Of a stretch of DNA of 64,000 nt, positions 17,147-62,336 are shown in pieces (position 1 is the first letter of the stretch; every line of letters begins with the position of its first letter). The notes under the pieces were generated by a model. It was given only the letters and a program-made list of their open reading frames with translations. It had not been told where the DNA came from and did no database searches. The stretch is from NCBI GenBank assembly GCA_041675085.1, contig JBAYUN010000003.1, forward strand, positions 28,798 to 92,797, in the 5' to 3' direction. The stretch is from Minisyncoccota bacterium. Its GTDB lineage: Bacteria > Patescibacteriota > Minisyncoccia > Phycocordibacterales > UBA9973. The position numbers were made by a program, and so were the translations under genes.

Positions 17147-17154
17147 TATATTAT

Positions 17155-17376: not shown

Positions 17377-17387
17377 ATTCTAGATAA

Positions 17388-47327: not shown

Positions 47328-47371
47328 TTTTTATTTTTGTGTTAAAGTAAAAGTACAATCAAATATTGTAT

Positions 47372-47535
47372 ATCAAGAGTGAGGTTTCTTTTGAATTTCA
47401 AAAGAAAAGAGAATTGGCTCAGACCTCCAGCAACCTGTCTTTTAAGGAAAGGTGCTAAATCCAACCTAAAGCCCTAAGGCTGAAGGAAAGATATGTCTCG
47501 CGTCTAGTCCATGCAAGAAAATTCTTTCCTTCATT
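47372..47535 (+). promoter_or_regulatory. SAM-I (S-box) riboswitch with terminator expression platform
   Basis: AUCAAGAGUGAGG...AGAGAAUUGGCUCAGACCUCCAGCAACC...AAGGUGCUAAAUCCAACC...GAAAGAUAUG matches S-box conserved blocks (AUCAAGAG.GG.GGAGGGA.uGGCCC..UGA..CCCGGCAACC / AAGGUGCUAAAUCC). The terminator AAGGAAAGA...TCTTTCCTT plus U-run follows. It lies directly upstream of metK. Confidence 0.8.
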
Positions 47536-47560
47536 ATTATAATGTAGGAATTTTTTATTT

Positions 47561-48496
47561 ATGATTAAAACAGCTGAGTTTGTGAGTCCACGTCATCCAG
47601 ACAAGATTTGTGATTTTATTGCAGATTCTATTCTGGACGCTTATTTAGAGGGCGACGTTGATAGTCGTGTGGCTATTGAAGTTATGGGTGGTCATAACCT
47701 TATCACTATCAACGGTGAAGTCACTTCTAAGACAGAAATTAATATAGAAAATATTGTTAAGAATATAGTTGGTGAGGGTTATAAGGTTCTATCCAATATC
47801 GCTTTGCAGAGTCGGGAAATAGCGAGCGGTGTAGATACGGGCGGGGCAGGAGATCAAGGTATTATGAAAGGATATGCGACTCACGAGACTGAGAGTCTAC
47901 TACCTTTAGAATACGAACTTGCGAGAGATTTGTGTCAAAAGATTTATAAAGTTTATCCTTATGACGGCAAGACTCAAGTTACTGTCGAAGATGGGCGGGT
48001 GAAAGTCGTCGTAGCGAGTTTTCAAAATTCTAAGAATAGTAAACTTCTAGAATTAGTAAAAAGTATAATCGACTCCGAAGAATATCTAATCAATCCAGCT
48101 GGAGAATGGGTCTCGGGTGGCTTTGATTCTGATACAGGTCTTTCTGGACGCAAACTCGTCGTGGATAATTACGGCCCCGAAGTCGCTATCGGAGGTGGGT
48201 CTTTCTCGGGCAAGGATTATACCAAAGTAGATAGAAGCGGAGCGTATATGGCCCGCAAGATAGCCGTAGATTTATTGCGTAAATATGAGGCGAAAGAAGT
48301 CGTCACCAAGCTTGCTTATGCTATAGGTAAAAGCGAACCTGTCATGGCTATAGCTATAGTCGACGGTAGAGAAGAAGAAATAGCTGATTATGATCTAAGT
48401 CCAAAAGGTATCAGAGAATATCTCAAACTAAAAGACGTAAAGTTCGCTGAGACTTGTACTTGGGGACATTTTGGGCGAGGTTTTAGTTGGAAATAA
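47561..48496 (+). CDS. metK: S-adenosylmethionine synthetase (compact 311-aa form)
   Basis: SPRHPDKICDFIADSILDA (GHPDKIxDQISD), GGAGDQGIMKGYATHET (GAGDQGxMFGYA), DTGLSGRKLVVDNYGPEVAIGGGSFSGKDYTKVDRSGAYMAR and the C-terminal WGHFGR. Confidence 0.85.
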   Translation: MIKTAEFVSPRHPDKICDFIADSILDAYLEGDVDSRVAIEVMGGHNLITINGEVTSKTEINIENIVKNIVGEGYKVLSNIALQSREIASGVDTGGAGDQGIMKGYATHETESLLPLEYELARDLCQKIYKVYPYDGKTQVTVEDGRVKVVVASFQNSKNSKLLELVKSIIDSEEYLINPAGEWVSGGFDSDTGLSGRKLVVDNYGPEVAIGGGSFSGKDYTKVDRSGAYMARKIAVDLLRKYEAKEVVTKLAYAIGKSEPVMAIAIVDGREEEIADYDLSPKGIREYLKLKDVKFAETCTWGHFGRGFSWK

Positions 48497-48739
48497 TTAT
48501 CCTTTCTTTAAGAATTCAGTTCTCAAGACCAAACCTTTCATTCCGTCGGCGTTGCATTCAACGAGTTCTTCATCGTCAGTAAGTCTAATATTTTTAATCT
48601 TAGTTCCTTGCTTGAGAGTACTAGAGGTGCCTTTGACCTTTAAGTCTTTAATAACTATAACGCTATCTCCGTTGGCTAAAATATTACCATGCGCATCACG
48701 GACTATTATCTCATCTTCATTTTCTATATTTTCATTCAT
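48497..48739 (-). CDS. PhnA-domain protein (YjdC/PhnA family)
   Basis: IVRDAHGNILANGDSVIVIKDLKVKGTSSTLKQGTKIKNIRL matches the PhnA C-terminal domain. Length is 80 aa. Confidence 0.6.
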   Translation of the reverse strand: MNENIENEDEIIVRDAHGNILANGDSVIVIKDLKVKGTSSTLKQGTKIKNIRLTDDEELVECNADGMKGLVLRTEFLKKG

Positions 48740-48768
48740 TTAGATAGTATACTAAAAATACCAAAATA

Positions 48769-49323
48769 ATGAAGCCAATTTTCTTAATTAAAAATACTGA
48801 GGTACGTTATACGATAAAAGTCCGCAAAGGTACAAGGGGTATTCGTATTAGTGTCTCGCCAGATTTATCTGTCGTCGTGATTAAACCGCGCAATATTTCA
48901 GACTCTTATGTTCAAAATCTCGTCGAGACGAAGACTGACTGGATTCTAGAACAGATAGAGAATTTAAAAAAAAGACCAAAGAAACTCCTCGCGCATTTCT
49001 CCATCAAAGATTATCAACTCTATAAACAAGACGCCTCCGATATAGCTCTCGAGAGATGTCTCTATTTCAATCAATTTTACAATTTCAAAATCAAAAGTAT
49101 CAAGATACGCAATCAGAAAACTAGATGGGGTAGTTGCTCAAGCTCGGGCGAACTTTCTTTCAATTATAAAATATTTTTCTTACCTCCCGACCTACGCGAC
49201 TATATCATCGTGCACGAATTAGCGCATTTAAAAGAAATGAATCACGGAGCAAAATTCTGGGCTTTGGTGAGTCTTCAAATTCCAGATTATAAAAGACGCA
49301 TGCAGGATATACGACTTTATTAG
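48769..49323 (+). CDS. DUF45/YgjP-like zinc metallohydrolase
   Basis: IIVHELAHLKEMNHGAKFW carries HExxH plus a downstream H, in the WLM/YgjP arrangement. Basic N-terminus. Confidence 0.5.
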   Translation: MKPIFLIKNTEVRYTIKVRKGTRGIRISVSPDLSVVVIKPRNISDSYVQNLVETKTDWILEQIENLKKRPKKLLAHFSIKDYQLYKQDASDIALERCLYFNQFYNFKIKSIKIRNQKTRWGSCSSSGELSFNYKIFFLPPDLRDYIIVHELAHLKEMNHGAKFWALVSLQIPDYKRRMQDIRLY

Positions 49324-49372
49324 TGTATAAATATTTTAATGAATTTGTGTTATTATTAGATTAATGAAAATA

Positions 49373-49430
49373 AGTTTTTCGGCGTTAAGGCAAAAGGAGA
49401 ATGCTCTAGAAAAACTATTTAATGAATTTT
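49373..49430 (+). promoter_or_regulatory. 58-nt leader element, copy A (stem AGTTTTTC...GAAAAACT enclosing AAGGAGAATGCTCT)
   Basis: agtttttcggcgttaaggcaaaaggagaatgctctagaaaaactatttaatgaatttt. A near-identical copy lies at 50103..50160. Each sits ~80-140 nt upstream of the next gene start. Confidence 0.4.
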
Positions 49431-49511
49431 TGGATTATTAGATTTATTAAAATTAATTAAAAATTGTGCCGCGTTTTAATGGACAGTTACGCGGCATGAT
49501 TTTACAAAAAA

Positions 49512-50081
49512 ATGTCAAAAATATCAATTTGGGTTTTGGTAGGAATTATATTCGTTGGGGGAGGATATTATGCTTTGAATGTTTCAAAGAATAATAATAC
49601 TAATACATTAGATAATGAGGTAGTAGTCGATACAAATCAAGAAGACGATACTATAAATACAGACGCGACTACTGAGGCGACGCCTTCTGGTAAGAAGATG
49701 GCCTTCTCGCAATTTATCGCGACAGATAAAGGCTCTTATGAATGCACCGTGAATCAATACGTGAACGATATCGAAAGCAAAGGTAAAGTCTATATCAACA
49801 ACGGCATGATCAAAGGGGAATTCAATACAAAGACCGCTGGACTCAGTATAGATACTTCACTCATAGTCAGAGACGGTTTTACTTATACTTGGAGCTCTAT
49901 GTTGCCAGGCGTAGGCTTTAAAGCAAAAGTCGTAGCCGATACGAATACAAATACCGATACAAAAACTACCGCTCAATATAGCTTTAATGCAGAACAAATA
50001 GGGGATTATGATTGCCAACCTTGGGCTACCGACGAGAGTAAATTCATTTTACCTACTAGTATCGTCTTCAAAGAAGTCTAG
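49512..50081 (+). CDS. hypothetical N-terminally anchored Thr/Asn-rich protein
   Basis: An N-terminal TM then a T/N/D-rich region with Cys pairs (C..C, C). No motif recognised. Confidence 0.3.
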   Translation: MSKISIWVLVGIIFVGGGYYALNVSKNNNTNTLDNEVVVDTNQEDDTINTDATTEATPSGKKMAFSQFIATDKGSYECTVNQYVNDIESKGKVYINNGMIKGEFNTKTAGLSIDTSLIVRDGFTYTWSSMLPGVGFKAKVVADTNTNTDTKTTAQYSFNAEQIGDYDCQPWATDESKFILPTSIVFKEV

Positions 50082-50102
50082 GAAATAAAAAAATAATACA
50101 AT

Positions 50103-50160
50103 AGTTTTTTGGCATTAAGTCATAAGGAGAATGCTCTTAAAAAACTATTTGCATTATTTT
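50103..50160 (+). promoter_or_regulatory. 58-nt leader element, copy B
   Basis: agttttttggcattaagtcataaggagaatgctcttaaaaaactatttgcattatttt. Confidence 0.4.
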
Positions 50161-50244
50161 CTCTATAAAGGATTGCTAAAATTCTATTTTTATTGTAGGA
50201 TTATTTTGATATAAAATAGTTCATCATATTAAAACAGAATAAAA

Positions 50245-50925
50245 ATGGAAGTTAATGGCAGTCCTACCCCAGAAGGATTTGAGTGGTTTGCTCTTGAAAT
50301 GCAAGCGTTAGGGTTCACTAAAATCGGAGGGAAAAAAATTCGTCAAGATTTTACAAGACTTGATCTTCAAACAAGGATTCGAAAAATCCAAGGTTATGAA
50401 ACCGGTTTTCAGTATTCAAATGGAACCTATGCAGTGAAAGTTTGGACAACTTTTCTTGAAAAAGAAAATAAGCTCCGAGACAAGGGGACTGATGCTGGAT
50501 GGGTTATTATCACAAAAGGTGATGTTTTGATTTATTGCGCTCAGTATTTTACGAGAAAAAATAAGAATTTTTTTGTAGACATGAAGGAATACGCCCGAAT
50601 CAATAAAAAGAAAATTGATGGCAATCCTCTTTGCCCTTGCAAAAAATGTGAACGTGAGATGGAAATTCACCGTAAAAAAGGAAGTCGTCAGTATTTCTGG
50701 ATTTGTATAAATCCAGAAAAACACTCAAAACCAGAATACTTGTCTTGGGATTATGGTTTATCGGAAGAAGATAAAAAATTCTTGGAAATAAGGAGACAAA
50801 ATACAGCTTCTTATAAAAAGAAAAATCAAAAAGCAAAAGAAGAGTCAGGAAAAGAAATTCCTACTCCTAAAGCTACCACAAGGAAAGTCCGTGAGGTCGG
50901 CAGACCAGACAACTTAAAAAAATGA
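50245..50925 (+). CDS. hypothetical protein with topoisomerase-type C4 zinc-ribbon
   Basis: LCPCKKCEREMEIHRKKGSRQYFWICINPEKH resembles the zf-C4_Topoisom pattern CPxCg..l..r.g..G.F.gCsnyP.C. Basic C-terminal tail. Confidence 0.3.
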   Translation: MEVNGSPTPEGFEWFALEMQALGFTKIGGKKIRQDFTRLDLQTRIRKIQGYETGFQYSNGTYAVKVWTTFLEKENKLRDKGTDAGWVIITKGDVLIYCAQYFTRKNKNFFVDMKEYARINKKKIDGNPLCPCKKCEREMEIHRKKGSRQYFWICINPEKHSKPEYLSWDYGLSEEDKKFLEIRRQNTASYKKKNQKAKEESGKEIPTPKATTRKVREVGRPDNLKK

Positions 50926-50961
50926 AAATAGTTTTCTCTCTGTAAAAAAGAGAATAAGTCC

Positions 50962-50990
50962 CATACCGTTGGGACTTTTTTATTTTTATT
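50962..50990 (+). terminator. rho-independent terminator
   Basis: AGTCCCA-taccgt-TGGGACT plus a T-run. Confidence 0.5.
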
Positions 50991-51057
50991 TTTATCTCAA
51001 ATTATTTCATTATTTTTTAATCAAGATTAATATTTCTATTTGCTGTATAATACAAGC

Positions 51058-51381
51058 ATGATAAATACTTTTACAACAGGTTGGGGACTCGTCGTCGCTA
51101 TGTATCTCCTTGCGGGGATTTTCGGACTTTTATATCGAGCAATTCTCAAAAAATTAGCAAAGAATGCCGTCGTCGGAAAAGTTGGACGCGGTAGTAAAAA
51201 TATAGGTAAAGGCGACCGCCTGTTGAGACTCTTGATAGGAGTAGGGTTATTAGCATGGGCAGTAATGACCTCATGGAGCCCAATCCTCTTATTCTTCTCC
51301 GGATTCGCAATATTTGAAGCATTATTCAGCTGGTGTGGCTTTTATGCAGCAATAGGGAAAACTACTTGCCCTGTGGAATAG
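51058..51381 (+). CDS. DUF2892 (YgaP-like) small membrane protein
   Basis: Two TM helices and the C-terminal CGFYAAIGKTTCP, typical of DUF2892. An extended -10 TGtTATAAT at 51044..51051 puts the TSS at or near the ATG (leaderless). The track start at 51040 is a TTG. Confidence 0.4.
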   Translation: MINTFTTGWGLVVAMYLLAGIFGLLYRAILKKLAKNAVVGKVGRGSKNIGKGDRLLRLLIGVGLLAWAVMTSWSPILLFFSGFAIFEALFSWCGFYAAIGKTTCPVE

Positions 51382-51419
51382 ATTGCTTTTATATTTTAAA
51401 AATATGCTAAAATATTAGT

Positions 51420-52376
51420 ATGACTAGAAGCGAAATTATAGAAAAACTCAAAACTGATTTTGACCTACATGATATCTATATTCAGCATGTTTTAAGACAT
51501 GCAAAAAATAATTTTAATTATGAAAATCTAAAAAATATTATCGACTCAAAACCGAAACCTTTTGTAAAGTGGGTCGGAGGCAAGAGGCAACTCCTAAAGC
51601 AATTTAAAAAAATGAACTTGTATCCTCCTTTTGGATTTGATGCAAATAAGAATACTTACTTTGAACCGTTTGTCGGAGGTGGAGCTGTATTCTTTGACCT
51701 GCTACCCAAAAAAGCTTTCTTGTCGGATTTGAATTCTGATTTAGTGATTACTTATAACGTAATTAAAAATAATATCGATGCTTTGATAAAATCTTTAAAA
51801 AAGCATGAATACGAAAAAGATTATTTCTTGAAAGTTAGAGCTAAAAATCCGAAAGAACTTTCTGATTTAGAAATAGCTTCAAGATTTATTTTCTTAAACC
51901 GTACTTGTTTCAACGGCATGTATAGAGTAAATAGTAGTGGGCAGTTCAACGTACCTTTCGGGAAATATACCAATCCTTTGATTTGTGACGAAGATAATTT
52001 GAGAAAAGTTTCTAAAGCGTTAGAGAACGTAGAAATCAAACACCAAGACTATAAAGCGGTCTTAAAGAAAGCAAAGAAAGGGGACTTTATATACTTTGAT
52101 CCACCATATTATCCAATAAGTAAAACTGCATCTTTCACTACATATACTACAGAAGCATTCTTAGATAAAGAGCAAATAGAACTAAGAGATACATTTTTAG
52201 AACTTCATAAAAGAGGTTGTTTTGTTATGCTTTCAAATTCAGATGCACCTTTTATTAATAAAATTTATACAGGATTTAAAGGAGTGAAAATAAACAAAGT
52301 AGAAGCTGGTCGCGCAATCAATTCAGATTCTTCCAAGAGAGGAAAAATCACGGAAGTATTAATAACTAATTATTAA
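51420..52376 (+). CDS. Dam-family N6-adenine DNA methyltransferase (MethyltransfD12)
   Basis: KPFVKWVGGKRQLL (Dam motif), FEPFVGGGAVFF (FxGxG) and YFDPPY (DPPY motif IV). Confidence 0.85.
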   Translation: MTRSEIIEKLKTDFDLHDIYIQHVLRHAKNNFNYENLKNIIDSKPKPFVKWVGGKRQLLKQFKKMNLYPPFGFDANKNTYFEPFVGGGAVFFDLLPKKAFLSDLNSDLVITYNVIKNNIDALIKSLKKHEYEKDYFLKVRAKNPKELSDLEIASRFIFLNRTCFNGMYRVNSSGQFNVPFGKYTNPLICDEDNLRKVSKALENVEIKHQDYKAVLKKAKKGDFIYFDPPYYPISKTASFTTYTTEAFLDKEQIELRDTFLELHKRGCFVMLSNSDAPFINKIYTGFKGVKINKVEAGRAINSDSSKRGKITEVLITNY

Positions 52377-52381
52377 GATTT

Positions 52382-53641
52382 ATGGCTAATAATGGAAAAA
52401 TAGAATTTTCTTGTTTATGTTTCGATAAAGATAATCAATGTGTTTTTGGGGATGATCCTTCTCGTTTGGCGATGTCTTTAAAAAGTAACATATTGTTGTT
52501 TCCTAAAAATACAACTATTACTGATCACGACAATACTAAAACTTTAATAAAAGATAATGATAATGGCTTAGTTTTGAGTGTAATAAAATTATCTGGTTCT
52601 AATTTTCTAGATTATACAGCGGTTTTTTATCTTAAATGTGAAATAATTGGAAATGAAAAAAATATCTCTTATTTAGATAAATTTCGATTGAACATTGTTA
52701 ATTATTTAGTTGAACAAAAACTAGGTAAAATTTATGTAACCACAGATGAACTTTCATCAATGCTTTTGAATGAGCTTTATATCAAAATGAATAAAGTTGA
52801 AAATTTATTAAGGTCTTATATAACAAAACATTTTTCCATGACAGAAGGTGTTAGTTATTGGTTTAACAACGTCCTTGACAATGAAGTTAAAAATAAAACA
52901 GGGAAAAGAAAAGGTAATGAAGATGTGTTTTCAACAATAGTCGAGGAAAATGATAAAAAGGGTTTTGTTGTAGATACTAGGATGTATTTAATTGATTTCG
53001 AAGACTTGGGGAATATTATTTATGCTAACTCTTTTGGCAATTTAAAAATTGAAGATTTGGTTACAAGAATTGAAAATTCTGAAGATCTGGATGATTTAAA
53101 ATTAGCAGTTAAAAATAATATAGAAAGATATTTTCAAAGCTTTAAAGATGTAAGATTTCAGGAGAAATGGGATTTTTTAAAAAATATAAGACATAAAATT
53201 GCTCATAATGGACTTATTTCAATTGAACAAAAAACAAAAGCTGATCTGTATTTAAATGAATTGATTAATTTTATGACTGAAAAAGATACAGAAACAATTG
53301 GCAAAATATCAGATGTTGATATTTTTATAGATATAGAAAAGCGTGAGTATTCTTATATTGACTTTCATCATAAAGAAATAACAAAAAATGAATTAATACT
53401 TGAGCTTTCAAATTATCAAAAATGGTCAAAAAGCATAGGGAGAGATTTTCTAGGATTAAAAAACTTTCTTTTTAATCGTTTAGGAGGTATGGATTTCCAT
53501 ATTGGAAAAGCATGGGATAAGCTTGAAGAATTAGAACAAGACGGATATATTCAAATTTATGAATGGAAAGATCCTAAAGGTATATATACAGACCAAAAAG
53601 CAATAAAAATCTTGAAAGATTTACCAATTTATTCTGTTTAA
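52382..53641 (+). CDS. hypothetical protein with HEPN-like Rx4HxxG motif (Abi/Swt1-like?)
   Basis: 419 aa. LKNIRHKIAHNG matches the Rx4-6H HEPN RNase motif seen in Abi_2/Swt1-like families. The rest of the protein is unrecognised. It sits between the two methyltransferases. Confidence 0.3.
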   Translation: MANNGKIEFSCLCFDKDNQCVFGDDPSRLAMSLKSNILLFPKNTTITDHDNTKTLIKDNDNGLVLSVIKLSGSNFLDYTAVFYLKCEIIGNEKNISYLDKFRLNIVNYLVEQKLGKIYVTTDELSSMLLNELYIKMNKVENLLRSYITKHFSMTEGVSYWFNNVLDNEVKNKTGKRKGNEDVFSTIVEENDKKGFVVDTRMYLIDFEDLGNIIYANSFGNLKIEDLVTRIENSEDLDDLKLAVKNNIERYFQSFKDVRFQEKWDFLKNIRHKIAHNGLISIEQKTKADLYLNELINFMTEKDTETIGKISDVDIFIDIEKREYSYIDFHHKEITKNELILELSNYQKWSKSIGRDFLGLKNFLFNRLGGMDFHIGKAWDKLEELEQDGYIQIYEWKDPKGIYTDQKAIKILKDLPIYSV

Positions 53642-53645
53642 AAAT

Positions 53646-54404
53646 ATGGCAAACAATAATTCTTGGAAAAAAATATTTGATGATTATAAAATTTTGAAAC
53701 ACGACTTTTCAAAAGCACCTTTTTATTTGTCTGCAAAAGATATAAAAAAATCCGTTCAAGATTTTAAAGGTACAACCGAAAAAGAAGTTCGTATATTGTG
53801 CAAAATGGATACAAGAGAAAGTGTTCCAGAAGTAATGAGGGAAAGGGGCTTGATTTTGTTACCAGTTAAAAACGGTTATTATGTAATTTTGAAGGGAGAA
53901 GGATATATTGATATACCTGACATAAAAAATGATGCTGAAATATACAATACTAAATTAGATTTTGATTTGGATACTGTAAAAATTGGTAACTCTGAAATGC
54001 AACATTTAGATTTTGCTTATGCTTCAAGTTTGATTAGAACATTTATGGAAGATCCGACACTTGTTTTAACTATTCGTGGTAGAAAATATACACCTGAATT
54101 TAGTTTTAAAATTGGTAAGCATCTTATCGAAACAGAAAGTGTGCAAACTGAAGTTGATGCGGGTTATGAAGGTAAAAATCAAATAGTTTTAATTGAAGCA
54201 AAGAATTCAAAAACAAAAAATACAATCATTAGGCAATTATATTATCCTTATAGACAATGGTCAGAATATACAAAGAAAAAAGTTGTTTTATTGTTTTTTG
54301 AGAAAAGAATTGATGAATATTTAATTTGGCAATATGAATTTTCCAACAAAGATAATTATGACTCAATAAAATTAGTTAAATCAAAAAAATATAAAATAGT
54401 TTAA
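53646..54404 (+). CDS. candidate PD-(D/E)xK restriction endonuclease
   Basis: VDAGYEGKNQIVLIEAKNS supplies D...(x12)...E-A-K in a hydrophobic beta-strand context. The stop overlaps the start of the downstream MTase (TAATG). Confidence 0.35.
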   Translation: MANNNSWKKIFDDYKILKHDFSKAPFYLSAKDIKKSVQDFKGTTEKEVRILCKMDTRESVPEVMRERGLILLPVKNGYYVILKGEGYIDIPDIKNDAEIYNTKLDFDLDTVKIGNSEMQHLDFAYASSLIRTFMEDPTLVLTIRGRKYTPEFSFKIGKHLIETESVQTEVDAGYEGKNQIVLIEAKNSKTKNTIIRQLYYPYRQWSEYTKKKVVLLFFEKRIDEYLIWQYEFSNKDNYDSIKLVKSKKYKIV

Positions 54405-55156
54405 TGTCACAAAAAGAATTAAAACTTCATCCCGAGAATTTTGAAATGGAGTGCACAAGCGTTTGGGCTTTTCCTAGGCGTGGGAATTGGGCTACTCATA
54501 CTTCGGATTGGAGAGGGAATTGGTCGCCTGAAGTTGTGCGTAATATAATTCTACGATATTCAAAAGAAGGGGAGCATTTGCTTGACTGCATGATAGGAGG
54601 CGGTACGACAGCGATAGAAGCCAAAATTCTAAATAGACATATAACTTGCCTAGATATCAACGAAGAAGCCCTAGAGAGAACTAAACGAGTTTTAAACTTT
54701 GAAAGTGATAACAAAGCCAAGCAGAGAGTCTTGAAATGTGATGCTCGGAACATGACTTGTATTAAAGATGGTGAGATAGATTTAGTCTTAACTCATCCAC
54801 CTTATGCAGATATTATTAAATATAGCGAAGGTCAGATTTTAGAAGACTTATCTAATATTCATGATATTGATAAATTTTGTGATGAAATAGAACAAGTAGC
54901 TAGAGAGCTTTTTAGAGTTTTAAAGAAAGGAAAATATTGTGCTATTTTGATAGGAGATACAAGGAGAAATAAAATGTATCAACCTTTGGCTTTTAAGGTT
55001 ATGGAAAAGTTTTTGAAAGCAGGTTTTGTTTTAAAAGAAGATATAATCAAAAGACAATTTAATTGCAAAGCGACAGGGTTCTGGGTAAACAAATCCAAAG
55101 AAGCAAATTTCTTATTAATAATGCATGAACATTTATTTATTTTTCAGAAAGTTTAG
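54404..55156 (+). CDS. N6_N4-type DNA methyltransferase (N6-adenine or N4-cytosine)
   Basis: LLDCMIGGGTTAIEA (SAM-binding) and DLVLTHPPYAD ((S/D)PPY/F catalytic motif). About 250 aa, DpnA/M.MboIC-like in size. Confidence 0.75.
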   Translation: MSQKELKLHPENFEMECTSVWAFPRRGNWATHTSDWRGNWSPEVVRNIILRYSKEGEHLLDCMIGGGTTAIEAKILNRHITCLDINEEALERTKRVLNFESDNKAKQRVLKCDARNMTCIKDGEIDLVLTHPPYADIIKYSEGQILEDLSNIHDIDKFCDEIEQVARELFRVLKKGKYCAILIGDTRRNKMYQPLAFKVMEKFLKAGFVLKEDIIKRQFNCKATGFWVNKSKEANFLLIMHEHLFIFQKV

Positions 55157-55214
55157 TATAATAAATTCTGATAAATATATGTTATAATAAAAAAGTGCTA
55201 CTATTAAATAGTTT

Positions 55215-55350
55215 AATCAAGAGTGGTGGTAGAGAATTGGCTCAGTAACCCCACAGCAACCTACAAATGTAAGGTGCTAAATCCAACCAGGTGCGAAAGC
55301 ATCAGGAAAGATATGTCTCGCGTCTAGTCCACGAGAGAAAAATCTTTCCT
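55215..55350 (+). promoter_or_regulatory. SAM-I (S-box) riboswitch, second copy
   Basis: AAUCAAGAGUGGUGGUAGAGAAUUGGCUCAGUAACCCCACAGCAACC...UAAGGUGCUAAAUCCAACCAGGUGCGAAAGCAUCAGGAAAGAUAUG. Terminator GAAAGA..TCTTTCC plus a T-run. Confidence 0.8.
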
Positions 55351-55376
55351 CTTATTAGAGGAATTTTTTATTTATT

Positions 55377-56312
55377 ATGAAGAAAACAGCAGAATTTGTT
55401 AGTCCAATGCATCCAGATAAAATCTGTGATCATATCGCAGATACTATACTCGATGCATATTTAGAAGGAGATAAAAATAGTCGTTGCGCTATAGAGGTTA
55501 TGGGTGGTCATAATCTGATTACTATCAATGGAGAAATCACCTCTAAAACAGAAGTTAACATTGAAGAGATTGTTAAAAATATCGTTGGTGAGAATTATAA
55601 AGTTTTATCAAATATTGCTTTGCAGAGTACGGAGATAGCGGCGGGTGTAGATACTGGCGGTGCGGGTGATCAAGGAATCATGAAAGGTTATGCGACTCGG
55701 GAGACCGATAATTTTATGCCATTAGAATATGAACTTGCGAGAAATCTTTGTCAGAAAATATTTGAGATATATCCTTATGACGGTAAGACTCAGGTCACGA
55801 CAGAAGATGGGCAGGTCAAAGTAGTTGTGGTGAGTTTTCAGAATTCTAAAAATATTGAACTTTTAGAATTAGTAAAAAGTATTATTCCTGCTGAAGAATA
55901 TCTGATCAATCCAGCTGGAGAATGGGTGCAGGGAGGATTTGATTCAGATACTGGTCTTTCAGGAAGAAAATTAATAGTAGATAACTATGGACCAGAAGTT
56001 GCTATTGGTGGTGGGTCTTTCTCAGGCAAGGATTATACTAAGGTAGATAGAAGTGGAGCATATATGGCTCGCAAGGTTGCCGTAGATCTGCTTAAAAAAT
56101 ATAAAGCTAAAGAGGTACATATAAAACTTGCATATGCTATAGGAAAAGCAGAACCAGTAATGGCTGTGGCTAATATTGATGGCATTGAAATAGAAATCAC
56201 AGGATATGATTTAACACCTAAAGGAATATTTGATTATTTAAAATTAAGTAAAATAAAATTTTCTAAAACTTCTAATTGGGGTCATTTTGGAAGAGGTTTT
56301 TCTTGGAATTAA
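55377..56312 (+). CDS. metK: S-adenosylmethionine synthetase, second paralog (311 aa)
   Basis: SPMHPDKICDHIADTILDA, GGAGDQGIMKGYATRET, DTGLSGRKLIVDNYGPEVAIGGGSFSGKDYTKVDRSGAYMAR. About 75-80% identical to the first copy by eye. Confidence 0.85.
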   Translation: MKKTAEFVSPMHPDKICDHIADTILDAYLEGDKNSRCAIEVMGGHNLITINGEITSKTEVNIEEIVKNIVGENYKVLSNIALQSTEIAAGVDTGGAGDQGIMKGYATRETDNFMPLEYELARNLCQKIFEIYPYDGKTQVTTEDGQVKVVVVSFQNSKNIELLELVKSIIPAEEYLINPAGEWVQGGFDSDTGLSGRKLIVDNYGPEVAIGGGSFSGKDYTKVDRSGAYMARKVAVDLLKKYKAKEVHIKLAYAIGKAEPVMAVANIDGIEIEITGYDLTPKGIFDYLKLSKIKFSKTSNWGHFGRGFSWN

Positions 56313-56356: not shown

Positions 56357-56827
56357 TTGAGTTATACAAGCCTTAACATTAAATGTTATAATAATTCTAT
56401 GCAAATAAGATGCCGAGGGATAATTTTAGATAAGGAGGGGAAGATGCTTGCCGTTCGACATGGGGCGGATTTTGATTATTATGCTTTGCCTGGAGGGAAA
56501 TTGGATGACGGGGAGAATCCTTTGGTTTGTATCAAGCGGGAAATATTTGAAGAATTTGGAGTAGAAATACAAGTAGAGAATACTAAACTTCTTTATGTTC
56601 ATAATTGGAAGAACAAAGAAGACGGAGTTGAAAATTTGGAATTCATATTTTTGATAAAAGATAATGGAGAATTCATGAATCTAGAAGAAAAAAAGGGAAG
56701 TCATGCTTTTGAAATATTTGAAATCAAATGGATAGATCGGAATACAGAAATAAATCTCTTGCCAAAGCAGGTCCTAATAGATTATAAAAAAGGCTTCTCG
56801 GATGAGGTAGTATTCTTGTCAGTCTAG
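56357..56827 (+). CDS. NUDIX hydrolase
   Basis: Nudix box GGKLDDGENPLVCIKREIFEEFGVEI (Gx5Ex7REuxEExGu). The true start may be MQIRCRG at 56399. Confidence 0.65.
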   Translation: MSYTSLNIKCYNNSMQIRCRGIILDKEGKMLAVRHGADFDYYALPGGKLDDGENPLVCIKREIFEEFGVEIQVENTKLLYVHNWKNKEDGVENLEFIFLIKDNGEFMNLEEKKGSHAFEIFEIKWIDRNTEINLLPKQVLIDYKKGFSDEVVFLSV

Positions 56828-56841
56828 AATTATAAATACAT

Positions 56842-57303
56842 ATGAACTACTGGCTAATTAAAAGTGAAATGGAGTGTTATGGGATTGATGACTTGAAGAA
56901 GGATAAGAAGACTTTTTGGTCTGGGGTGCGGAATTACCAAGCGAGGAATTTTATGATGAAGGGGATGGAGATTGGGGACGGGGTACTCTTTTACCATTCC
57001 AACGGTACGAAAGAAAATCCGGCGGGGGTTTACGGACTAGCAAAAGTGGCGAGTAAGGCGCGTGCGGACGAGACGCAGTTTGATAAAAAGGATGAACATT
57101 ATGATAAGAAAGCTACTAAGGAAAGGCCGATATGGTACTCTGTTGATATGGCATTTGTAAAAAAGTTTGAAGAGCCGGTATCTCTTTCAGAAATTAAAAT
57201 TGATCCAGCATTCGCCGGCATGCCACTCCTCGCCCGAGGGCAACGCCTTTCTGTGATGCCCGTTTCCAAAAAGCATTTTGAGCATATCGTTACTCGAGCT
57301 TGA
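56842..57303 (+). CDS. EVE (PUA-like) domain protein
   Basis: MNYWLIKSEMECYGIDDL...WSGVRNYQARNFMMKGMEIGDGVLFYHSN...GVYGLAKVAS is a near-consensus EVE domain. Confidence 0.8.
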   Translation: MNYWLIKSEMECYGIDDLKKDKKTFWSGVRNYQARNFMMKGMEIGDGVLFYHSNGTKENPAGVYGLAKVASKARADETQFDKKDEHYDKKATKERPIWYSVDMAFVKKFEEPVSLSEIKIDPAFAGMPLLARGQRLSVMPVSKKHFEHIVTRA

Positions 57304-57331
57304 GCAAAAAAAGTAGAATAATATTACAAAA

Positions 57332-57365
57332 AATAAAGACCTTCATTTTTTTTTGAAGGTCTTTT
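57332..57365. terminator. bidirectional terminator
   Basis: AAAGACCTTCA-ttttttttt-TGAAGGTCTTT between convergent genes. Confidence 0.55.
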
Positions 57366-57379
57366 GATGTAAGAAGAAA

Positions 57380-57601
57380 TTATTTCTTCTTCTTGTTTGA
57401 TTTTTTGATTGAGGTGTATTTCACCTCCATGCCTTTTGGGCGTTTGGATTTTTTTACTCCGCAACTTGCGCTGCGGTTTTTAGCTATACCAGAGTTTGAG
57501 TACTTCTTACTCCACTCATAGCTCCCTGGTTGGGGAGTGCTACAGCTTGAGAAAAATAAACAACCAAAACCCAATACGATATAAAGAACAAACTTTTTCA
57601 T
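57380..57601 (-). CDS. small lipoprotein
   Basis: Signal peptide with a lipobox-like FFSSC. 73 aa, basic C-terminus. Confidence 0.35.
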   Translation of the reverse strand: MKKFVLYIVLGFGCLFFSSCSTPQPGSYEWSKKYSNSGIAKNRSASCGVKKSKRPKGMEVKYTSIKKSNKKKK

Positions 57602-57732
57602 GAATAAAGAATTTAGTGTGTGAAGAAATCTGTGTATATTATATCATAGATATATCTAAAAGTCAAGTATACGTGATGGTTCAATACCTTGGAATCACCT
57701 CAAATCATTAAATATATTAGGATTTAGGCCTA

Positions 57733-57806
57733 ATATCGTTAAAATCTGTTAAATATTATTGTTTTTAACGATATTGCTTGACTTTATCAGCAATATTTAA
57801 TATAAT
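57733..57806 (+). promoter_or_regulatory. consensus sigma70 promoter (TTGACT-17-TATAAT) overlapped by two palindromic operator-like sites
   Basis: TTGACT 57778..57783, 17-nt spacer, TATAAT 57801..57806. IR1 is ATATTGCT(57771..57778)/AGCAATAT(57789..57796), spanning the -35 and spacer. IR2 is ATATCGTTAAAA(57733..57744)/TTTTAACGATAT(57763..57774). The ATG lies 8 nt after the -10, so the mRNA is leaderless or nearly so. Confidence 0.55.
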
Positions 57807-57813
57807 CTTATAT

Positions 57814-58695
57814 ATGGCAAATACATTCAAGGCATATAAACAAATACAAGAACTACGGGAAAGGTATTATAAAGCCCTTGTTGGCAAAGAATCTCTTGTA
57901 AAAATGATTTCTGAAGCTGAAATTTCAGAGCAAGTTTATAACTCAAATGCTATTGAGAATAGTACTTTGTCTTTAGATGAAACAGATAAAATCCTACTTC
58001 AAATAGACCTTGATAGATATATATCCGAGAGAGAGATTTTTGAAGCTAAAAACCTAGCTCGAGTCGTAAGTTATATTGAAACTAAATCTAAAGCTAGTGA
58101 ATTAGATTTTGCAATTATTCTATCTTTGCATAAAATGTTAATCTCAAATATTAGAGATGAAATAGCAGGAAGATTTAGAAAAGAAGGTGAATGGGTTCGT
58201 GTGGGCGATCATATAGCTCCAGATCCTTTAGAAGTTGAAAACTTATTGCAAAAAGTTTTAACTGAATATAATGGAAATTCTAAAGAATCCATTGTAAAAA
58301 AAATTGCAAGATTTCACTTGGGTTTTGAATACGTGCATCCTTTTTGTGATGGCAATGGGCGTATCGGTAGAGTGTTAAATAATTACCTTTTGATTCGTGG
58401 AGGTTACGTACCTATAAATATTAAATTTATTGATAGAGCTATGTATTATGATGCTTTCCGTGAATTTCAAAAAAAAGGTACTACAAAAATAATGGAGATA
58501 ATAGTGCTTAAAGCTTTAACTAATAGTTATCATAAAAGATTAGCTTATTTAGAAAATAAATTAATTATTAATTTATCTGATTATGCTAAAAGAAATAAAA
58601 TTTCGCATGCAAATCTAATTAATAAAGCAAAAAGGCAAACTATCGAAGCTTTTATGGAGAGAGGTATTTGGAAAATTGGTGTAGATAAAAATTAA
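57814..58695 (+). CDS. Fic-domain protein (AMPylase family)
   Basis: HPFCDGNGRIGR is the canonical Fic motif HPFx(D/E)GNGRxxR. The start is reassigned to MANTFKAYK downstream of the promoter. Confidence 0.8.
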   Translation: MANTFKAYKQIQELRERYYKALVGKESLVKMISEAEISEQVYNSNAIENSTLSLDETDKILLQIDLDRYISEREIFEAKNLARVVSYIETKSKASELDFAIILSLHKMLISNIRDEIAGRFRKEGEWVRVGDHIAPDPLEVENLLQKVLTEYNGNSKESIVKKIARFHLGFEYVHPFCDGNGRIGRVLNNYLLIRGGYVPINIKFIDRAMYYDAFREFQKKGTTKIMEIIVLKALTNSYHKRLAYLENKLIINLSDYAKRNKISHANLINKAKRQTIEAFMERGIWKIGVDKN

Positions 58696-59136: not shown

Positions 59137-60246
59137 ATGAGTTTATCAATTGGAATCGTGGGACTACCTAACGTCGGGAAATCTACTTTATTTAATGCAT
59201 TGACTAAAAAGTCTGTACCGGCGGAGAATTATCCTTTCTGTACTATAGATCCTTCTGTAGGAATCGTACCTGTGCCTGATGCTCGTCTCTGGGCTCTTTC
59301 CGAATTCTCTAAAACTAAAAAGACTGTACCGGCTGTGGTGGAATTCGTAGATATTGCGGGACTCGTCGAAGGTGCGAGTAAGGGTGAAGGTTTGGGTAAT
59401 AAATTCTTAGCGAACATTCGCGAGACAGACGCTATACTGCACATGGTGCGTCTTTTTCCGCTCACTGGAGGCGATAAAGAGATAGCTCACGTTTACGGCA
59501 ATATTGATCCTATGAGGGACATCGGAGTTATTAATCTCGAGTTAGTTTTGGCAGATTTTGAGACAGTAATGAAGAGAATAAATAATTTACAAAAAGACGT
59601 AAAGCGTGGAGATAAAGAAGCTGTATTTGAAGAGACTCTACTGAAGAGAGTTGAGAAAATTCTTGAAGAAGGTAAACTCGCGAACGTCCTCGAATATACT
59701 CCCGAAGAAGCTAAGAAAATCAAACAATTAAACTTGCTAACTATCAAACCAATGATTTACGGTTTGAATAAAAAAGCTGGAGTCAAAAATCTCGACGAGC
59801 AGAATCCTGTATTCTTTCAAGAGATGACTGATGAGATATTGAAAAGTGGATCGAATTTTATTCTGATTGATGCAAAGATAGAAGACGAATTAAAAGATTT
59901 TGAAGGAGAAGAGAAGGATATTTTTAGAAAAGAACTCGGAGGTGAGCATGACGGTATCAACGACCTTATCGTCGGGTGCTACAAGCTCCTAGGTCTCGAG
60001 ACTTATTTCACGACTGGAGTCGAAGAGACTAGAGCTTGGACTATATTGAAAGGTTCGACTGCGCCGGTAGCGGGTATGGCTATTCATACGGATTTCAAAG
60101 ATAAATTCATTAGGGCGGAAGTAGTAGCCTATGACAAGCTTTTAGAAGCGGGGAGTTATGCGAATGCGAGAGAAAAAGGCTATGTACGTACAGAAGGCAA
60201 AGAATACATAGTCAAAGATGGGGATGTTATAGAATTTAAGGTTTAG
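59137..60246 (+). CDS. ychF: redox-regulated ATPase YchF (Obg-like)
   Basis: IVGLPNVGKSTLFNALT (G1), DIAGLV (G3), NKxD-like, plus a C-terminal TGS domain. Confidence 0.9.
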   Translation: MSLSIGIVGLPNVGKSTLFNALTKKSVPAENYPFCTIDPSVGIVPVPDARLWALSEFSKTKKTVPAVVEFVDIAGLVEGASKGEGLGNKFLANIRETDAILHMVRLFPLTGGDKEIAHVYGNIDPMRDIGVINLELVLADFETVMKRINNLQKDVKRGDKEAVFEETLLKRVEKILEEGKLANVLEYTPEEAKKIKQLNLLTIKPMIYGLNKKAGVKNLDEQNPVFFQEMTDEILKSGSNFILIDAKIEDELKDFEGEEKDIFRKELGGEHDGINDLIVGCYKLLGLETYFTTGVEETRAWTILKGSTAPVAGMAIHTDFKDKFIRAEVVAYDKLLEAGSYANAREKGYVRTEGKEYIVKDGDVIEFKV

Positions 60247-60324
60247 ATTTTAAATCTTGCTAAATATTTATATAGTTATAGAATATAAGAGGATATAATT
60301 CTTTAACTTTTTAATTTTATTAAC

Positions 60325-60636
60325 ATGGGACTCAAAGGTTTGAATATTAATTTGTCAGCAGGGCTTCCTGGTATAGACTATTTTGTAAAGATTTTTAATG
60401 AGGAATATCCTCAAACCAAAAATTTTGATAAAATAGTAAATGCTATTTGGTCGAAATTCTCTCCTTTCTCTGTTTTTAGAGATAAATACCCTAGAGTTAG
60501 TACTCTATCATGTGCTATTAGTACAGAGAAAGCCAGGTTATCAAAACTAAAAAAAGAGGAAGAGAGAAAAAAATTAGTTAAAACAGTTAAAAACAAAAAG
60601 TCGTGCGAAGTGGTACAGTTGAGTTTAAAATTTTAG
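60325..60636 (+). CDS. hypothetical protein
   Basis: 103 aa with a Lys-rich C-terminal tail. Confidence 0.25.
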   Translation: MGLKGLNINLSAGLPGIDYFVKIFNEEYPQTKNFDKIVNAIWSKFSPFSVFRDKYPRVSTLSCAISTEKARLSKLKKEEERKKLVKTVKNKKSCEVVQLSLKF

Positions 60637-60647
60637 AAAAAATTTAA

Positions 60648-60685
60648 AAAGTGATGATCAATATCTTATCATCACTTTTTTTATT
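60648..60685. terminator. bidirectional terminator
   Basis: AAGTGATGAT-caatatctt-ATCATCACTT flanked by A/T runs, between convergent genes. Confidence 0.5.
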
Positions 60686-60686
60686 T

Positions 60687-61241
60687 CTATTTTTTTTCTT
60701 TTTTGAGTTTGTTGATTTCTTCTAATAGGACTTCGAGAGTACGTTCTATTTTTTCAAATTTCTTTTTTTCTATTTCTTCTTCTTGATCGTCTTCTGTTGT
60801 ATCTTCTTCCTCTTCGTTTATCTCTTCGACGTCCTTTTGAATCTCGCCAACGTCTTCAGATATTTCGTCGACGTCCTCAGAAATCTCTTCGACGTCTTTC
60901 TGAATCTCGTCGACGTCCTCCGAAATCTCGTCGACGTCTTTTTGAATCTCTTCAACATCTTCAGAGATCTCTTCAACGTCTTTCTGGATTTCTTCAATGT
61001 CTTCAGATACGTCTTCGAGGTCCTGACTGTGTTGGTTGATAGTTATTTGAATAAATATAGCTAAATATATGGCTTCGAGTGAAACGATAGTAGTCAGTAT
61101 TAGTAAAATATCAGAAGATTCTACCCCAAAAAAACTAAGAGAAAACATAACCATAAAGAATATAGTATGTACGACGAGAGAGCTAGTAGAGCCAACCCAA
61201 GAAGTTATTTTAGTTGAAAAATCTTTTTTTTCTTTTCTCAT
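60687..61241 (-). CDS. membrane-anchored acidic coiled-coil protein with perfect heptad tandem repeats
   Basis: Two N-terminal TM helices, then about 10 consecutive heptads of the form (E/K)DV(E/D)EI(S/Q) encoded by a 21-nt tandem DNA repeat (60780..61022). Acidic tail. Confidence 0.4.
   Translation of the reverse strand: MRKEKKDFSTKITSWVGSTSSLVVHTIFFMVMFSLSFFGVESSDILLILTTIVSLEAIYLAIFIQITINQHSQDLEDVSEDIEEIQKDVEEISEDVEEIQKDVDEISEDVDEIQKDVEEISEDVDEISEDVGEIQKDVEEINEEEEDTTEDDQEEEIEKKKFEKIERTLEVLLEEINKLKKEKK
60780..61022. repeat. 21-nt tandem repeat array (about 10 units) inside a CDS
   Basis: tcttcgacgtctttctgaatc / tcgtcgacgtcctccgaaatc units. It generates spurious plus-strand ORFs at 60783..61064 and 60797..61039. 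Confidence 0.6.
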
Positions 61242-61253
61242 TTTGTAGTTGTT

Positions 61254-62336
61254 TTGATAAAAATCTTAAATATTAAATTAGTCTTATTATATGGTATAAT
61301 ACTTTGTATGGAAACACAAACAAATCATGGGTCAAAACTTAATATAGGATTCTTCTTTTTATCATTAGGTGTACTGATTTCTCTTATAACAAGTGTCGTA
61401 TCTTTTTTAAATCTGGCTTTTTCGACTCTCGACAAGCGTTTCCCAGACGTCCTGAACGCTACTTATGGATACGGGTACAATACGTATGATTATGAAAGTA
61501 TTCGTACATCACTCGCGACTCTGATTATCTTCTTCCCAGTATTTTTATTGATTTCATATTTTTGGAATAAATTTGCCAAACATAAAATGCATCATGTTGA
61601 TGAATTGGTAAAGAAATGGATGATATATATTATCCTATTCTTGTCTTCTCTGGTAGTGGTGATAGACTTGGTGACTTTGGTGCGATATTTTGTATCAGGT
61701 GAGATAACCAATCGTTTTATTTATAAAGTATTGATCACTTTAGTTATCGCTTTGTTTGTGGGTGTGTACTATGTATTTGAATTAACAAATAGAAAAAAAG
61801 TTTATGGCTTACCTGTAGGAATATCTTCAGCTGTAAAGTCTTCTGTACTTGTCTTACTACTAGTTATCTTTAGTTTTTATATTATGGGTAGTCCCGCATC
61901 TCAAAGACAATTGAGATTAGACGAAAGAAGAATATCTGATCTACAAAGTATTCAAAGTGCAGTGATTAATTATTGGCAACAAAAAGAGAAATTGCCAATA
62001 ACTCTCACTGAATTATCAAATCCTCTGTCTGGTTTTACTTTACCGCCTGATCCAGAATTCCAAAAAGGATTTGTGTATGAGTACAAGGTAAAAGAAGGTT
62101 TGACTTTTGAGTTATGTGCGACTTTTGCAAAACCGATACCAAAAGGTTGGAGAGAAAATACTAATTATTACGCAGAGCCCTATCTAGGGGAAAAATATAT
62201 AGCAGTATCATATCCTGGTTATCCTGTATCAGGGACTAATGAATCTTGGGATCACGAAGCTGGACGTACTTGTTTTGAGAGGACTATAGATAAAGATATC
62301 TATCCTCCTTATCCAAAAGCAGATATTGTTAGATAA
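61254..62336 (+). CDS. hypothetical polytopic membrane protein with C-terminal soluble domain
   Basis: Four or five TM helices then a ~120-aa C-terminal domain (..GYPVSGTNESWDHEAGRTCFER..). The likely start is METQTNHG at 61302. Confidence 0.35.
   Translation: MIKILNIKLVLLYGIILCMETQTNHGSKLNIGFFFLSLGVLISLITSVVSFLNLAFSTLDKRFPDVLNATYGYGYNTYDYESIRTSLATLIIFFPVFLLISYFWNKFAKHKMHHVDELVKKWMIYIILFLSSLVVVIDLVTLVRYFVSGEITNRFIYKVLITLVIALFVGVYYVFELTNRKKVYGLPVGISSAVKSSVLVLLLVIFSFYIMGSPASQRQLRLDERRISDLQSIQSAVINYWQQKEKLPITLTELSNPLSGFTLPPDPEFQKGFVYEYKVKEGLTFELCATFAKPIPKGWRENTNYYAEPYLGEKYIAVSYPGYPVSGTNESWDHEAGRTCFERTIDKDIYPPYPKADIVR

Follow-up and report, generated by a model that had tools for sequence, protein, structure and literature searches.

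Two old, separately regulated metK genes on either side of a syntenic backbone and a mobile restriction-modification cassette in a Paceibacterota genome

Why does a bacterial genome keep two genes for S-adenosylmethionine (SAM) synthetase, each behind its own SAM-I riboswitch leader, and why do the two copies stand on either side of a group of genes that includes DNA methyltransferases (MTases)? The question is raised by a 64,000-nucleotide (nt) stretch of contig JBAYUN010000003.1 (assembly GCA_041675085.1), here called the window. The contig is 529 kb long and belongs to a metagenome-assembled genome (MAG) of Candidatus Paceibacterota, in the candidate phyla radiation (CPR; Patescibacteria). 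An initial annotation of this sequence proposed that the two metK modules bracket a single accessory island of ~6.7 kb, rich in MTases and acquired together with its own SAM synthetase. Comparison with sampled loci of other genomes and contigs (designated by L-numbers such as L001, L087, and L198) leads to a different answer. Both metK loci hold long-diverged copies of the compact SAM synthetase gene that is standard in the clade, each copy with its own regulation, and the 6.9 kb between them consists of two different parts, a backbone and a mobile restriction-modification (R-M) cassette. We consider it reasonably probable, with moderate confidence, that the arrangement reflects the history of one locus within an insertion hotspot, where an old metK pair persists and the mobile cassette is one insert. 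The parts are familiar and ordinary for CPR genomes, and their arrangement is unusual yet explicable.

The two 311-amino-acid (aa) metK genes (Table 1) were correctly recognized at the outset: the N-terminal (76 to 77 bits), central (55 to 56 bits), and C-terminal (113 to 119 bits) MetK domains all score above their Pfam cutoffs in both copies. The genes form direct repeats 7,816 nt apart, which bears out the proposed direct duplication of a regulatory and coding module, and DNA alignment confines the homology to the segment from the -10 box and aptamer to the stop codon, with unrelated flanks. Their identity had been estimated at ~75 to 80%; the measured values are 82% for amino acids, 77% for nucleotides, and 56% at third codon positions. 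The nucleotide alignment that had been suggested for dating the duplication indicates that it is old, with a synonymous divergence (dS) of ~1.4 and a dN/dS of ~0.09. A recent duplication is ruled out by this dS and by the third-position identity, and on these sequence measures the two genes are old paralogues, both under purifying selection.

The two copies differ in their relationship to the rest of the clade. In close relatives, a single metK that is 91 to 92% identical to metK1 is followed by yjdM on the opposite strand, a ygjP-like gene, a 189-aa gene, and a ygaP-like gene, an order kept in L001, L002, L004, L005, and L170, and the synteny that metK1 shares with relatives reads Rhodanese-metK-YjdM. 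With a dS to its orthologues of 0.63 to 0.80, metK1 is, judged by sequence and synteny, the vertically inherited orthologue. For metK2, no orthologue above 85% identity was found among 5.8 billion protein clusters. Its closest relatives, at 85%, are metK1 orthologues from this narrow clade and not the metK beside the homologous cassette of L087, and a neighbor-joining tree places it as sister to the whole copy-1 clade (dS of 1.1 to 1.7 to that clade and at least 1.9 to outgroups). A foreign composition of metK2 was considered and ruled out; neither metK copy, and neither side of the region, is a compositional outlier.

Outgroup loci indicate what adjoined metK before the region expanded. The genes of the window's left flank lead straight into metK in L008, and the gene directly upstream of metK is Smr in L036 and Rhodanese in L012, L013, and L017. 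On the other side, ychF, DUF948 (minus strand), and DUF5671 directly follow the single metK in L034, and L007, another Paceibacterota genome, has ychF and DUF948 (minus strand) as its right flank. L007 has an integrated element between metK and ychF (positions 10987 to 17415 of that locus), which encodes a primase-helicase (D5_N/DUF5906) and, directly against ychF, a large serine recombinase; in L087 an R-M cassette follows metK directly. Because the outgroup flanks adjoin metK and the L007 interval holds an inserted element, we regard the metK-ychF interval as a recurrent insertion site. In the window, each metK copy keeps one of the two ancestral flanks.

The segment between the copies had been described as one island, and its individual gene calls were correct (DUF45 [YgjP-like], PhnA [YjdM], Zn-ribbon, DUF2892 [YgaP-like], and two DNA MTases). 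The description as a unit does not hold: positions 48497 to 51381 are syntenic backbone, and only positions 51420 to 55156, comprising a Dam MTase, a HEPN/Abi-like protein, a type II restriction endonuclease (REase), and an N6_N4 MTase, are mobile. What follows ygaP varies among relatives. A D12 MTase fusion is found there in L001 and L002, MazG with an SLFN-helicase/S24 protein in L005, a PLD-SNF2 protein in L170, an MTase with a DUF6996/7 protein in L092, Fic directly abutting YgaP in L154 and L156, and the R-M cassette in L198. Since the content differs in every relative, the post-YgaP site qualifies as a defence hotspot.

From these comparisons we propose that one ancestral locus (left flank, metK, ychF) underlies both metK positions. 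The metK-ychF interval would have been filled with clade-specific backbone genes and then with the defence hotspot after YgaP, which in the window genome would have received a mobile DpnII-style cassette. metK2 would be an extra copy retained only in the window lineage, either as an old duplicate lost elsewhere or as a xenologue from an unsampled sister lineage. The bracketing by metK would then be a product of locus history and not of a composite mobile element or a cotransferred SAM-supply module. The initial annotation had offered, as its second choice, insertion by recombination within a preexisting metK duplication; that alternative, taken to cover insertions within or next to the duplication, fits better than its first, given one ancestral flank per copy and a dS of 1.4.

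Several observations weigh against this history. An old duplication needs at least two losses within the clade, and horizontal transfer needs an unsampled donor. The sequences of L001, L002, and L005 stop before the right end of the variable region, and the absence of metK2 from these genomes is given by the protein database search only. Between nt ~120 and ~300 of the gene, metK2 is more orthologue-like than metK1, which suggests exchange between the copies; judged from the alignment, this stretch may be a product of gene conversion. Finally, the adjacency of cassette and metK in L087 exceeds an easy chance expectation and hints at some linkage. When a metagenome scan was anchored on YgaP to reach the right end in the closest relatives, no relative above 78% identity came up, and the L001 contig was not among the hits.

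The linkage between metK and the cassette can be viewed from both ends. Five distinct cassette contexts were sampled through their MTases, regardless of metK (L198, L200, L203, L205, and L215), and in none of the five was metK found near the D12...N6_N4 cassette, which rules out metK as an integral cassette part in these contexts. In L198 the cassette occupies the same position after YgaP, the YgaP-D12 junction sequence is conserved, and the gene behind the cassette is yjdM (minus strand), not metK. Viewed from metK, neither a second metK nor the cassette MTases occurred within 10 kb at any of 80 species-representative metK loci, and metK was seen in 0 of 80 YgaP-anchored loci. The exception is L087, where only 33 nt separate a riboswitch-metK from the homologous cassette downstream of it (N6_N4 MTase 84% and D12 MTase 68% identical); this case was found through metK, and its metK belongs to a different metK lineage.

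The proposal that metK2, possibly with the NUDIX and EVE genes behind it, is defence-island cargo that matches SAM supply to the demand of two methylases must be read against these counts. It is true that the second riboswitch-metK directly follows the last MTase gene, as first described, with riboswitch 2 starting 54 nt past that gene and no terminator between them, that metK2 is without an orthologue in relatives, and that it falls between YgaP and Fic, two genes with nothing between them in L154 and L156. L087 would be an independent pairing of the same kind, but its metK may be the native copy there, with the cassette inserted downstream. The cassette occurs without metK in all five contexts sampled regardless of metK, including at the same site in L198; metK2 is nearest to the metK of the local clade and not to that of L087; metK2 has a promoter-like box of its own; almost half of the supposed island is backbone; and the richness in MTases amounts to two genes. 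An island that brings its own SAM synthetase would be interesting if true, but this idea finds no support in the comparative data, and we judge co-acquisition unlikely.

The position of the repeats also invites a recombinational explanation, in which a circular DNA carrying a homologous riboswitch-metK recombined into the chromosomal metK by Campbell-type integration and so duplicated the module on both sides. The confinement of the direct repeats to exactly the promoter-riboswitch-coding module would suit this explanation, as would the one ancestral flank beside each copy, and the cassette end that abuts yjdM (minus strand) in L198 is the junction expected from a circularized inter-metK segment without metK. 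Such an event should leave a two-block chimera, but metK1 is native-like and metK2 is divergent along its whole length; moreover, the YjdM-to-YgaP segment beside metK1 is common to relatives that show one metK, and no integrase or att-like repeats were found. The probability of such an integration appears very low. A mobile island bounded by direct repeats was rejected on similar grounds: its inner 2.9 kb is backbone in relatives, and neither integrase, nor chimera, nor att repeats were present.

A second metK might instead be an artifact, if two related Paceibacterota genomes had been joined by the assembler inside near-identical mobile MTase genes and the two metK genes came from different organisms. 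The D12 and N6_N4 genes are 93 to 97% identical between organisms and are plausible misjoin points, metK2 resembles a sister-lineage orthologue, and a MAG bin from this group can contain more than one close relative (as with L013 and L017, 87% identical, in one bin). However, both MetK proteins are recorded on one 529-kb contig, ten genes apart, the flanks on the left and right together make up a single ancestral locus with nothing duplicated, and neither side is a compositional outlier. A look-up of the junctions through metK2 yielded no record from an independent assembly. A chimeric assembly is therefore highly improbable in our view. The L013/L017 bin (CAINWY01) was itself a candidate second two-copy genome, with Rhodanese, SAM-I, and metK on both contigs; these contigs are collinear at 87% nucleotide identity including the flanks, and two populations placed in one bin are their most likely source, not true paralogy.

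The cassette itself behaves as a modular unit. Its D12 MTase is 93% identical in L198 and 86% in L200, and its REase (DUF6996/DUF6997) shares 88% identity with that of the L205 cassette and 67% with that of L092, which adjoins an N6_N4 MTase. Several CPR lineages and one archaeal (Nitrosarchaeum) MAG have the N6_N4 MTase at 78 to 97% identity, and because of this distribution we consider the cassette highly mobile; a 63-kb Logan contig carries both the REase and the N6_N4 gene at 90% identity or more. Between the conserved D12 and N6_N4 frames the middle is swappable, with AIPR and DpnII in L087, GmrSD in L198, GmrSD and DpnII in L200 and L215, small open reading frames (ORFs) in L203, and a 199-aa protein with the window-type REase in L205. 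The DpnII-family endonuclease (PF04556) is thus present in L087, L200, and L215 and absent from the window cassette. The middle genes of the window cassette lie at the AT-rich extreme of composition. Around the cassette, Pfam gave no integrase, only a weak Zn-ribbon match, and no att-like repeats were found. The observed/expected ratio of GATC in the window is 0.77, similar to those of CTAG and TATA, and is uninformative on specificity.

The variable slot in the window holds a 419-aa protein with no direct Pfam match, which belongs to a family of 199 cluster representatives. Among 40 relatives, 33 match HEPN_Swt1 and 6 match Abi_2, and R270 and H275 of the Rx4H motif are invariant in all 40, whereas the window protein itself has no match. 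A profile search of PDB with the protein found no match, and a single-sequence AlphaFold2 (AF2) model was unusable, with a predicted local distance difference test score (pLDDT) of 38. From its family profiles and motif, the protein is probably an abortive-infection-type RNase carried within the R-M cassette.

Control of the two metK genes was examined through their leaders, and the most unusual single feature of the locus is found here. The initial annotation described clear S-box aptamers with terminator platforms before both genes. Both platforms are present, and leader 2 is a canonical aptamer that matches the full RF00162 model (positions 1 to 108) at 55.2 bits (E = 5e-10), the sole SAM-I hit in the whole window at the Rfam gathering score of 44.4 bits. 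Leader 1, at 36.7 bits (E = 8e-7), was found only by a permissive local search. The RF00162 search proposed as a check was thus passed by leader 2 and formally failed by leader 1, an outcome that the initial annotation had named as refuting its proposal, and the failure is explained by an insertion: leader 1 falls below the gathering score because a 23-nt hairpin replaces the P2 kink turn (K-turn). This hairpin (47385 to 47407; a perfect 8-bp stem, TTTCTTTTGA-ATT-TCAAAAGAAA) lies on the 5' strand of P2, and besides it 3 nt are lost on the 3' strand of P2 and P2a shows a compensating change. The insert region is predicted to fold as a three-way junction in place of the P2 K-turn, the element through which the loop docks on J3/4. 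The hairpin is unique to the window genome; leader 2 and five orthologous leaders do not have it, and in a search for a repeated mini-element it was single copy in the window.

Outside P2, leader 1 retains the features of the family. In an alignment of eight leaders (both window leaders, five orthologous leaders, and that of L087), the core strands J1/2 AUCAAGAG, P3 GCAACC...GGUGC, J3/4 UAAAUCCA, and J4/1-P1 GAAAGAU are identical or differ by one substitution. The pattern in P1 to P4 is one of covariation, with P3 and P4 varying in length and sequence while keeping their self-complementarity. A TGnTAnAnT box lies ~20 to 25 nt upstream of P1, at constant spacing, in all aligned metK leaders and would serve as an extended -10 element. 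RF00162 scored above threshold upstream of metK in 16 of 20 clade loci tested, and at two of the four loci without a hit the sequence is truncated by a contig end; the riboswitch-metK unit is therefore the clade norm. By alignment, leader 1 is an otherwise intact homologous SAM-I aptamer, a SAM-I derivative with an uncertain ligand response.

In the predicted folds of both leaders, an antiterminator competes on one side with P1 and on the other with an intrinsic terminator with U6, and antiterminator and terminator are mutually exclusive. The antiterminator pairing is GGAAAGAU/AUCUUUCC in both; its folding energy is -21.1 kcal/mol (z = -3.2) in leader 1 and -18.4 kcal/mol in leader 2, and the corresponding terminators fold at -7.3 kcal/mol (z = -2.95) and -8.8 kcal/mol, the latter being TTCCTCT-TATT-AGAGGAA plus T6. 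Each metK unit would accordingly act as an S-box OFF switch. Abundant SAM would stabilize P1, and the downstream UUCCUC...GAGGAA hairpin with U6 would be free to terminate transcription; with too little SAM, the P1 3' strand GGAAAGAU would pair with AUCUUUCC to form the antiterminator, and metK would be transcribed. From the -10 box to the ATG, leaders 1 and 2 are 84% identical, above the identity of the coding sequences. A 27-nt platform stretch, GGAAAGATATGTCTCGCGTCTAGTCCA (47485 to 47511 and 55305 to 55331), is identical in the two leaders despite the coding dS of ~1.4; its CTAGTC loop, part of a small hairpin within the antiterminator, does not vary in any aligned relative, L087 included.

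In the known aptamer, the bend that the K-turn puts into P2 lets the P2 loop dock and the SAM pocket form; disruption of the turn abolishes SAM binding, and an unrelated pk-turn can substitute for it (PMC4316175). A precedent for a k-junction has also been described (PMC4005666). Since leader 1 has lost the K-turn, the two copies probably respond differently to SAM, with metK2 probably retaining canonical feedback and the sensing of metK1 altered, probably weaker. Downstream of metK2, NUDIX and EVE genes (56357 to 57303) follow with gaps of 44 and 14 nt and are closed by a bidirectional terminator at 57335 to 57364; they may be cotranscribed with metK2 under riboswitch 2. The metK2-NUDIX-EVE trio was found in no relative. 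PADLOC assigns the NUDIX gene to PDC-S07 and the Fic gene further on to SoFic/PDC-S04, and the NUDIX, EVE, lipoprotein, and Fic group is absent from the metK neighbourhoods of relatives. One could imagine from these features a SAM-supply module that is carried with, or recruited beside, Dam/DpnA-type cassettes (as in the window and L087), with metK2 as genuine hotspot cargo, possibly in a riboswitch-gated operon with NUDIX and EVE, and with the sensor of leader 1 rewired in parallel. If so, SAM-dependent defence could continue when the housekeeping supply runs short or when phages deplete SAM or inhibit MetK; we hold this to be unlikely and favour the locus history set out above.

The MetK proteins had also been singled out as unusually short. 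This is true against classical bacteria only. Thousands of Paceibacteria and Nomurabacteria proteins are 311 to 312 aa long, and across 74 CPR species representatives (identity down to 44%) MetK ranges from 305 to 346 aa with a median of 317. Because the CPR-wide range is 305 to 346 aa, the 311-aa length is clade typical and not peculiar to this locus. Relative to the 384-aa Escherichia coli MetK, the compact form is ~70 residues shorter, with about nine loops and a 15-aa C-terminal tail gone. The window proteins score 245.5 and 252.7 bits against the NCBIfam equivalog TIGR01034, short of its 309.4-bit cutoff because of the deleted loops, and because this cutoff is missed they bear the NCBI name "methionine adenosyltransferase domain-containing protein."

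The claim that the substrate-binding blocks are kept was confirmed. H15, D17, K18, E43, HPDK, GAGDQG, and GGGxFSGKD are invariant in the alignment with E. coli MetK, and K166, D239, R245, K246, K266, K270, and D272 (E. coli numbering) are also conserved, residues that we take to have catalytic or ligand-binding roles. An AF2 monomer model (pLDDT of 76) keeps the three beta-alpha-beta-beta-alpha-beta domains, and the top 50 Foldseek matches to it in PDB are all methionine adenosyltransferases (MATs), with TMq values of 0.69 to 0.77; the fold similarity to solved MATs is given as TM 0.74 to 0.77. Confidence in the model is low at residues 91 to 99 and 184 to 224, active-site loops at the interface. 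The solved MAT structures among the matches are all at least 357 aa long, and none of the shorter form was found. The central-domain loops are heavily trimmed, and the tetramer contact may be lost. Together, the riboswitch and the catalytic residues argue that compact MetK, a functional-looking MAT by sequence, is a functional enzyme. Searches of viral contigs returned short MetK relatives at 64% identity or less and no N6_N4 relative. More distant MetK-like proteins (30 to 35% identity, apparently shortened) occur in gut Firmicutes genomes and in many IMG/VR viral contigs (L084 to L086 and L185 to L197); these may be phage- or prophage-borne relatives of SAM synthetase. A literature search on CPR MetK, on SAM riboswitches in CPR, and on MetK in defence islands found nothing relevant.

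Other features of the region are recorded here for completeness. The yjdM/phnA gene (minus strand) is 99 to 100% conserved among close relatives (L001 to L006), and it abuts the stop codon of the convergent gene upstream at 0 to 1 nt, this gene being metK1 in the window (48494 to 48499) and the N6_N4 MTase in L198 (5323 to 5325). Two pairs of intergenic direct repeats (46 to 48 nt, 88 to 89% identity) were observed. One pair (49373 to 49420 and 50103 to 50150) precedes the 189-aa and 226-aa genes, and the other (46767 to 46812 and 46907 to 46952) lies in the Smr-Rhodanese spacer, where relatives have a homologue of the 226-aa gene. Upstream of the metK region are two giant ORFs, at 17586 to 23900 (2,104 aa) and 25576 to 35208 (3,210 aa).

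Table 1. Coordinates of features in and around the two metK modules (window positions; a dot marks an entry to which no single strand is assigned)
Feature	Position	Strand	Evidence
Extended -10-like box TGTTAAAGT, module 1	47340..47348	+	TGnTAnAnT box; putative promoter
SAM-I-derived aptamer 1, P2 K-turn swapped for hairpin (insert 47385-47407)	47367..47497	+	RF00162, 36.7 bits
Expression platform 1: antiterminator 47485-47529 overlapping terminator hairpin and U6, 47526-47556	47485..47556	+	Predicted folds
metK1, compact 311-aa methionine adenosyltransferase	47561..48496	+	Pfam N, M, and C domains; vertical orthologue by synteny
Backbone: YjdM/PhnA (minus strand), YgjP-like, 189-aa protein, Zn-ribbon 226-aa protein, YgaP-like transmembrane protein	48497..51381	.	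Pfam; synteny
Dam-family D12 N6-adenine DNA MTase, left frame of cassette	51420..52376	+	PF02086, 220 bits; TIGR00571, 293 bits; PADLOC MTase_II
419-aa HEPN/Abi-like protein, variable middle slot	52382..53641	+	Family profile matches; Rx4H motif
Putative type II restriction endonuclease (DUF6996 and DUF6997)	53646..54404	+	Pfam; PADLOC REase_II, E = 6.7e-31
N6_N4 (DpnA-like) DNA MTase, right frame of cassette	54404..55156	+	PF01555; PADLOC MTase_II PDLC03376, full-length match
Extended -10 box TGTTATAAT, module 2	55180..55188	+	TGnTAnAnT box; putative promoter
Canonical SAM-I aptamer 2	55211..55317	+	RF00162, 55.2 bits
Expression platform 2: antiterminator 55305-55349 overlapping terminator and T6, 55346-55369	55305..55369	+	Terminator scan; predicted folds
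metK2, second compact MetK, lineage-specific paralogue or xenologue	55377..56312	+	Pfam; identity search; neighbor-joining tree; dS
Accessory genes of the metK2-ychF interval: NUDIX, EVE, small lipoprotein (minus strand), Fic	56357..58695	.	Pfam; PADLOC
Ancestral right flank: ychF GTPase, DUF948 (minus strand), DUF5671	59137..62336	.	Pfam; outgroup synteny

These findings bear on questions beyond this locus. Compact MetK falls below the metK equivalog cutoff, an annotation gap through which metabolic reconstructions could wrongly score CPR genomes as being without SAM synthesis. As a natural minimal MAT, the protein is also of interest for enzyme engineering. The K-turn replacement in leader 1 is a natural experiment on the dispensability of SAM-I architecture, and the D12...N6_N4 frame with its swappable nuclease/Abi middle illustrates modular defence exchange in organisms whose defence systems are little studied.

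Comparison with known systems places each part in context. The conflict between phage T3 SAM lyase and MetK shows that MetK and SAM are contested between phage and defence (bioRxiv 10.1101/2023.02.27.530186; PDB 8bb1). This conflict would give a rationale for an extra MetK near R-M genes, but nothing in the window data ties metK2 to defence. Hotspots in which defence islands occupy the space between conserved core genes have been described for E. coli and other bacteria. The site examined here resembles them in its fixed flanks, YgaP and, on a larger scale, metK and ychF, and in a cargo that differs in each relative; unlike them, it has its flank gene metK twice in the window, and no integrase was seen except in L007.

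The cassette is reminiscent of the DpnII system of Streptococcus pneumoniae, which comprises DpnM, DpnA, and DpnB. As in that system, a Dam-class D12 MTase and a second, N6_N4 MTase frame an endonuclease, and the sister cassettes of L087, L200, and L215 carry a true DpnII-family REase. The window cassette differs from it in its DUF6996/DUF6997 REase and in the extra HEPN/Abi-like gene in the middle. With E. coli MetK (TIGR01034), the window proteins share the three domains, the motifs, and the catalytic residues in a sequence shorter by the ~70 residues noted above.

Finally, the leaders are closest in design to the metK S-box of Firmicutes such as Bacillus subtilis (RF00162), a four-way junction aptamer directly upstream of metK through which SAM feeds back on its own synthetase, as proposed for the window. 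Both have the conserved core and a terminator/antiterminator OFF switch. Relative to this system, the window has the SAM-I-metK unit twice and in a CPR genome; its leader 1 has exchanged the K-turn for an 8-bp hairpin within a three-way junction, below the Rfam threshold; and both of its leaders carry, after P1, an identical 27-nt segment with an invariant CUAGUC loop.

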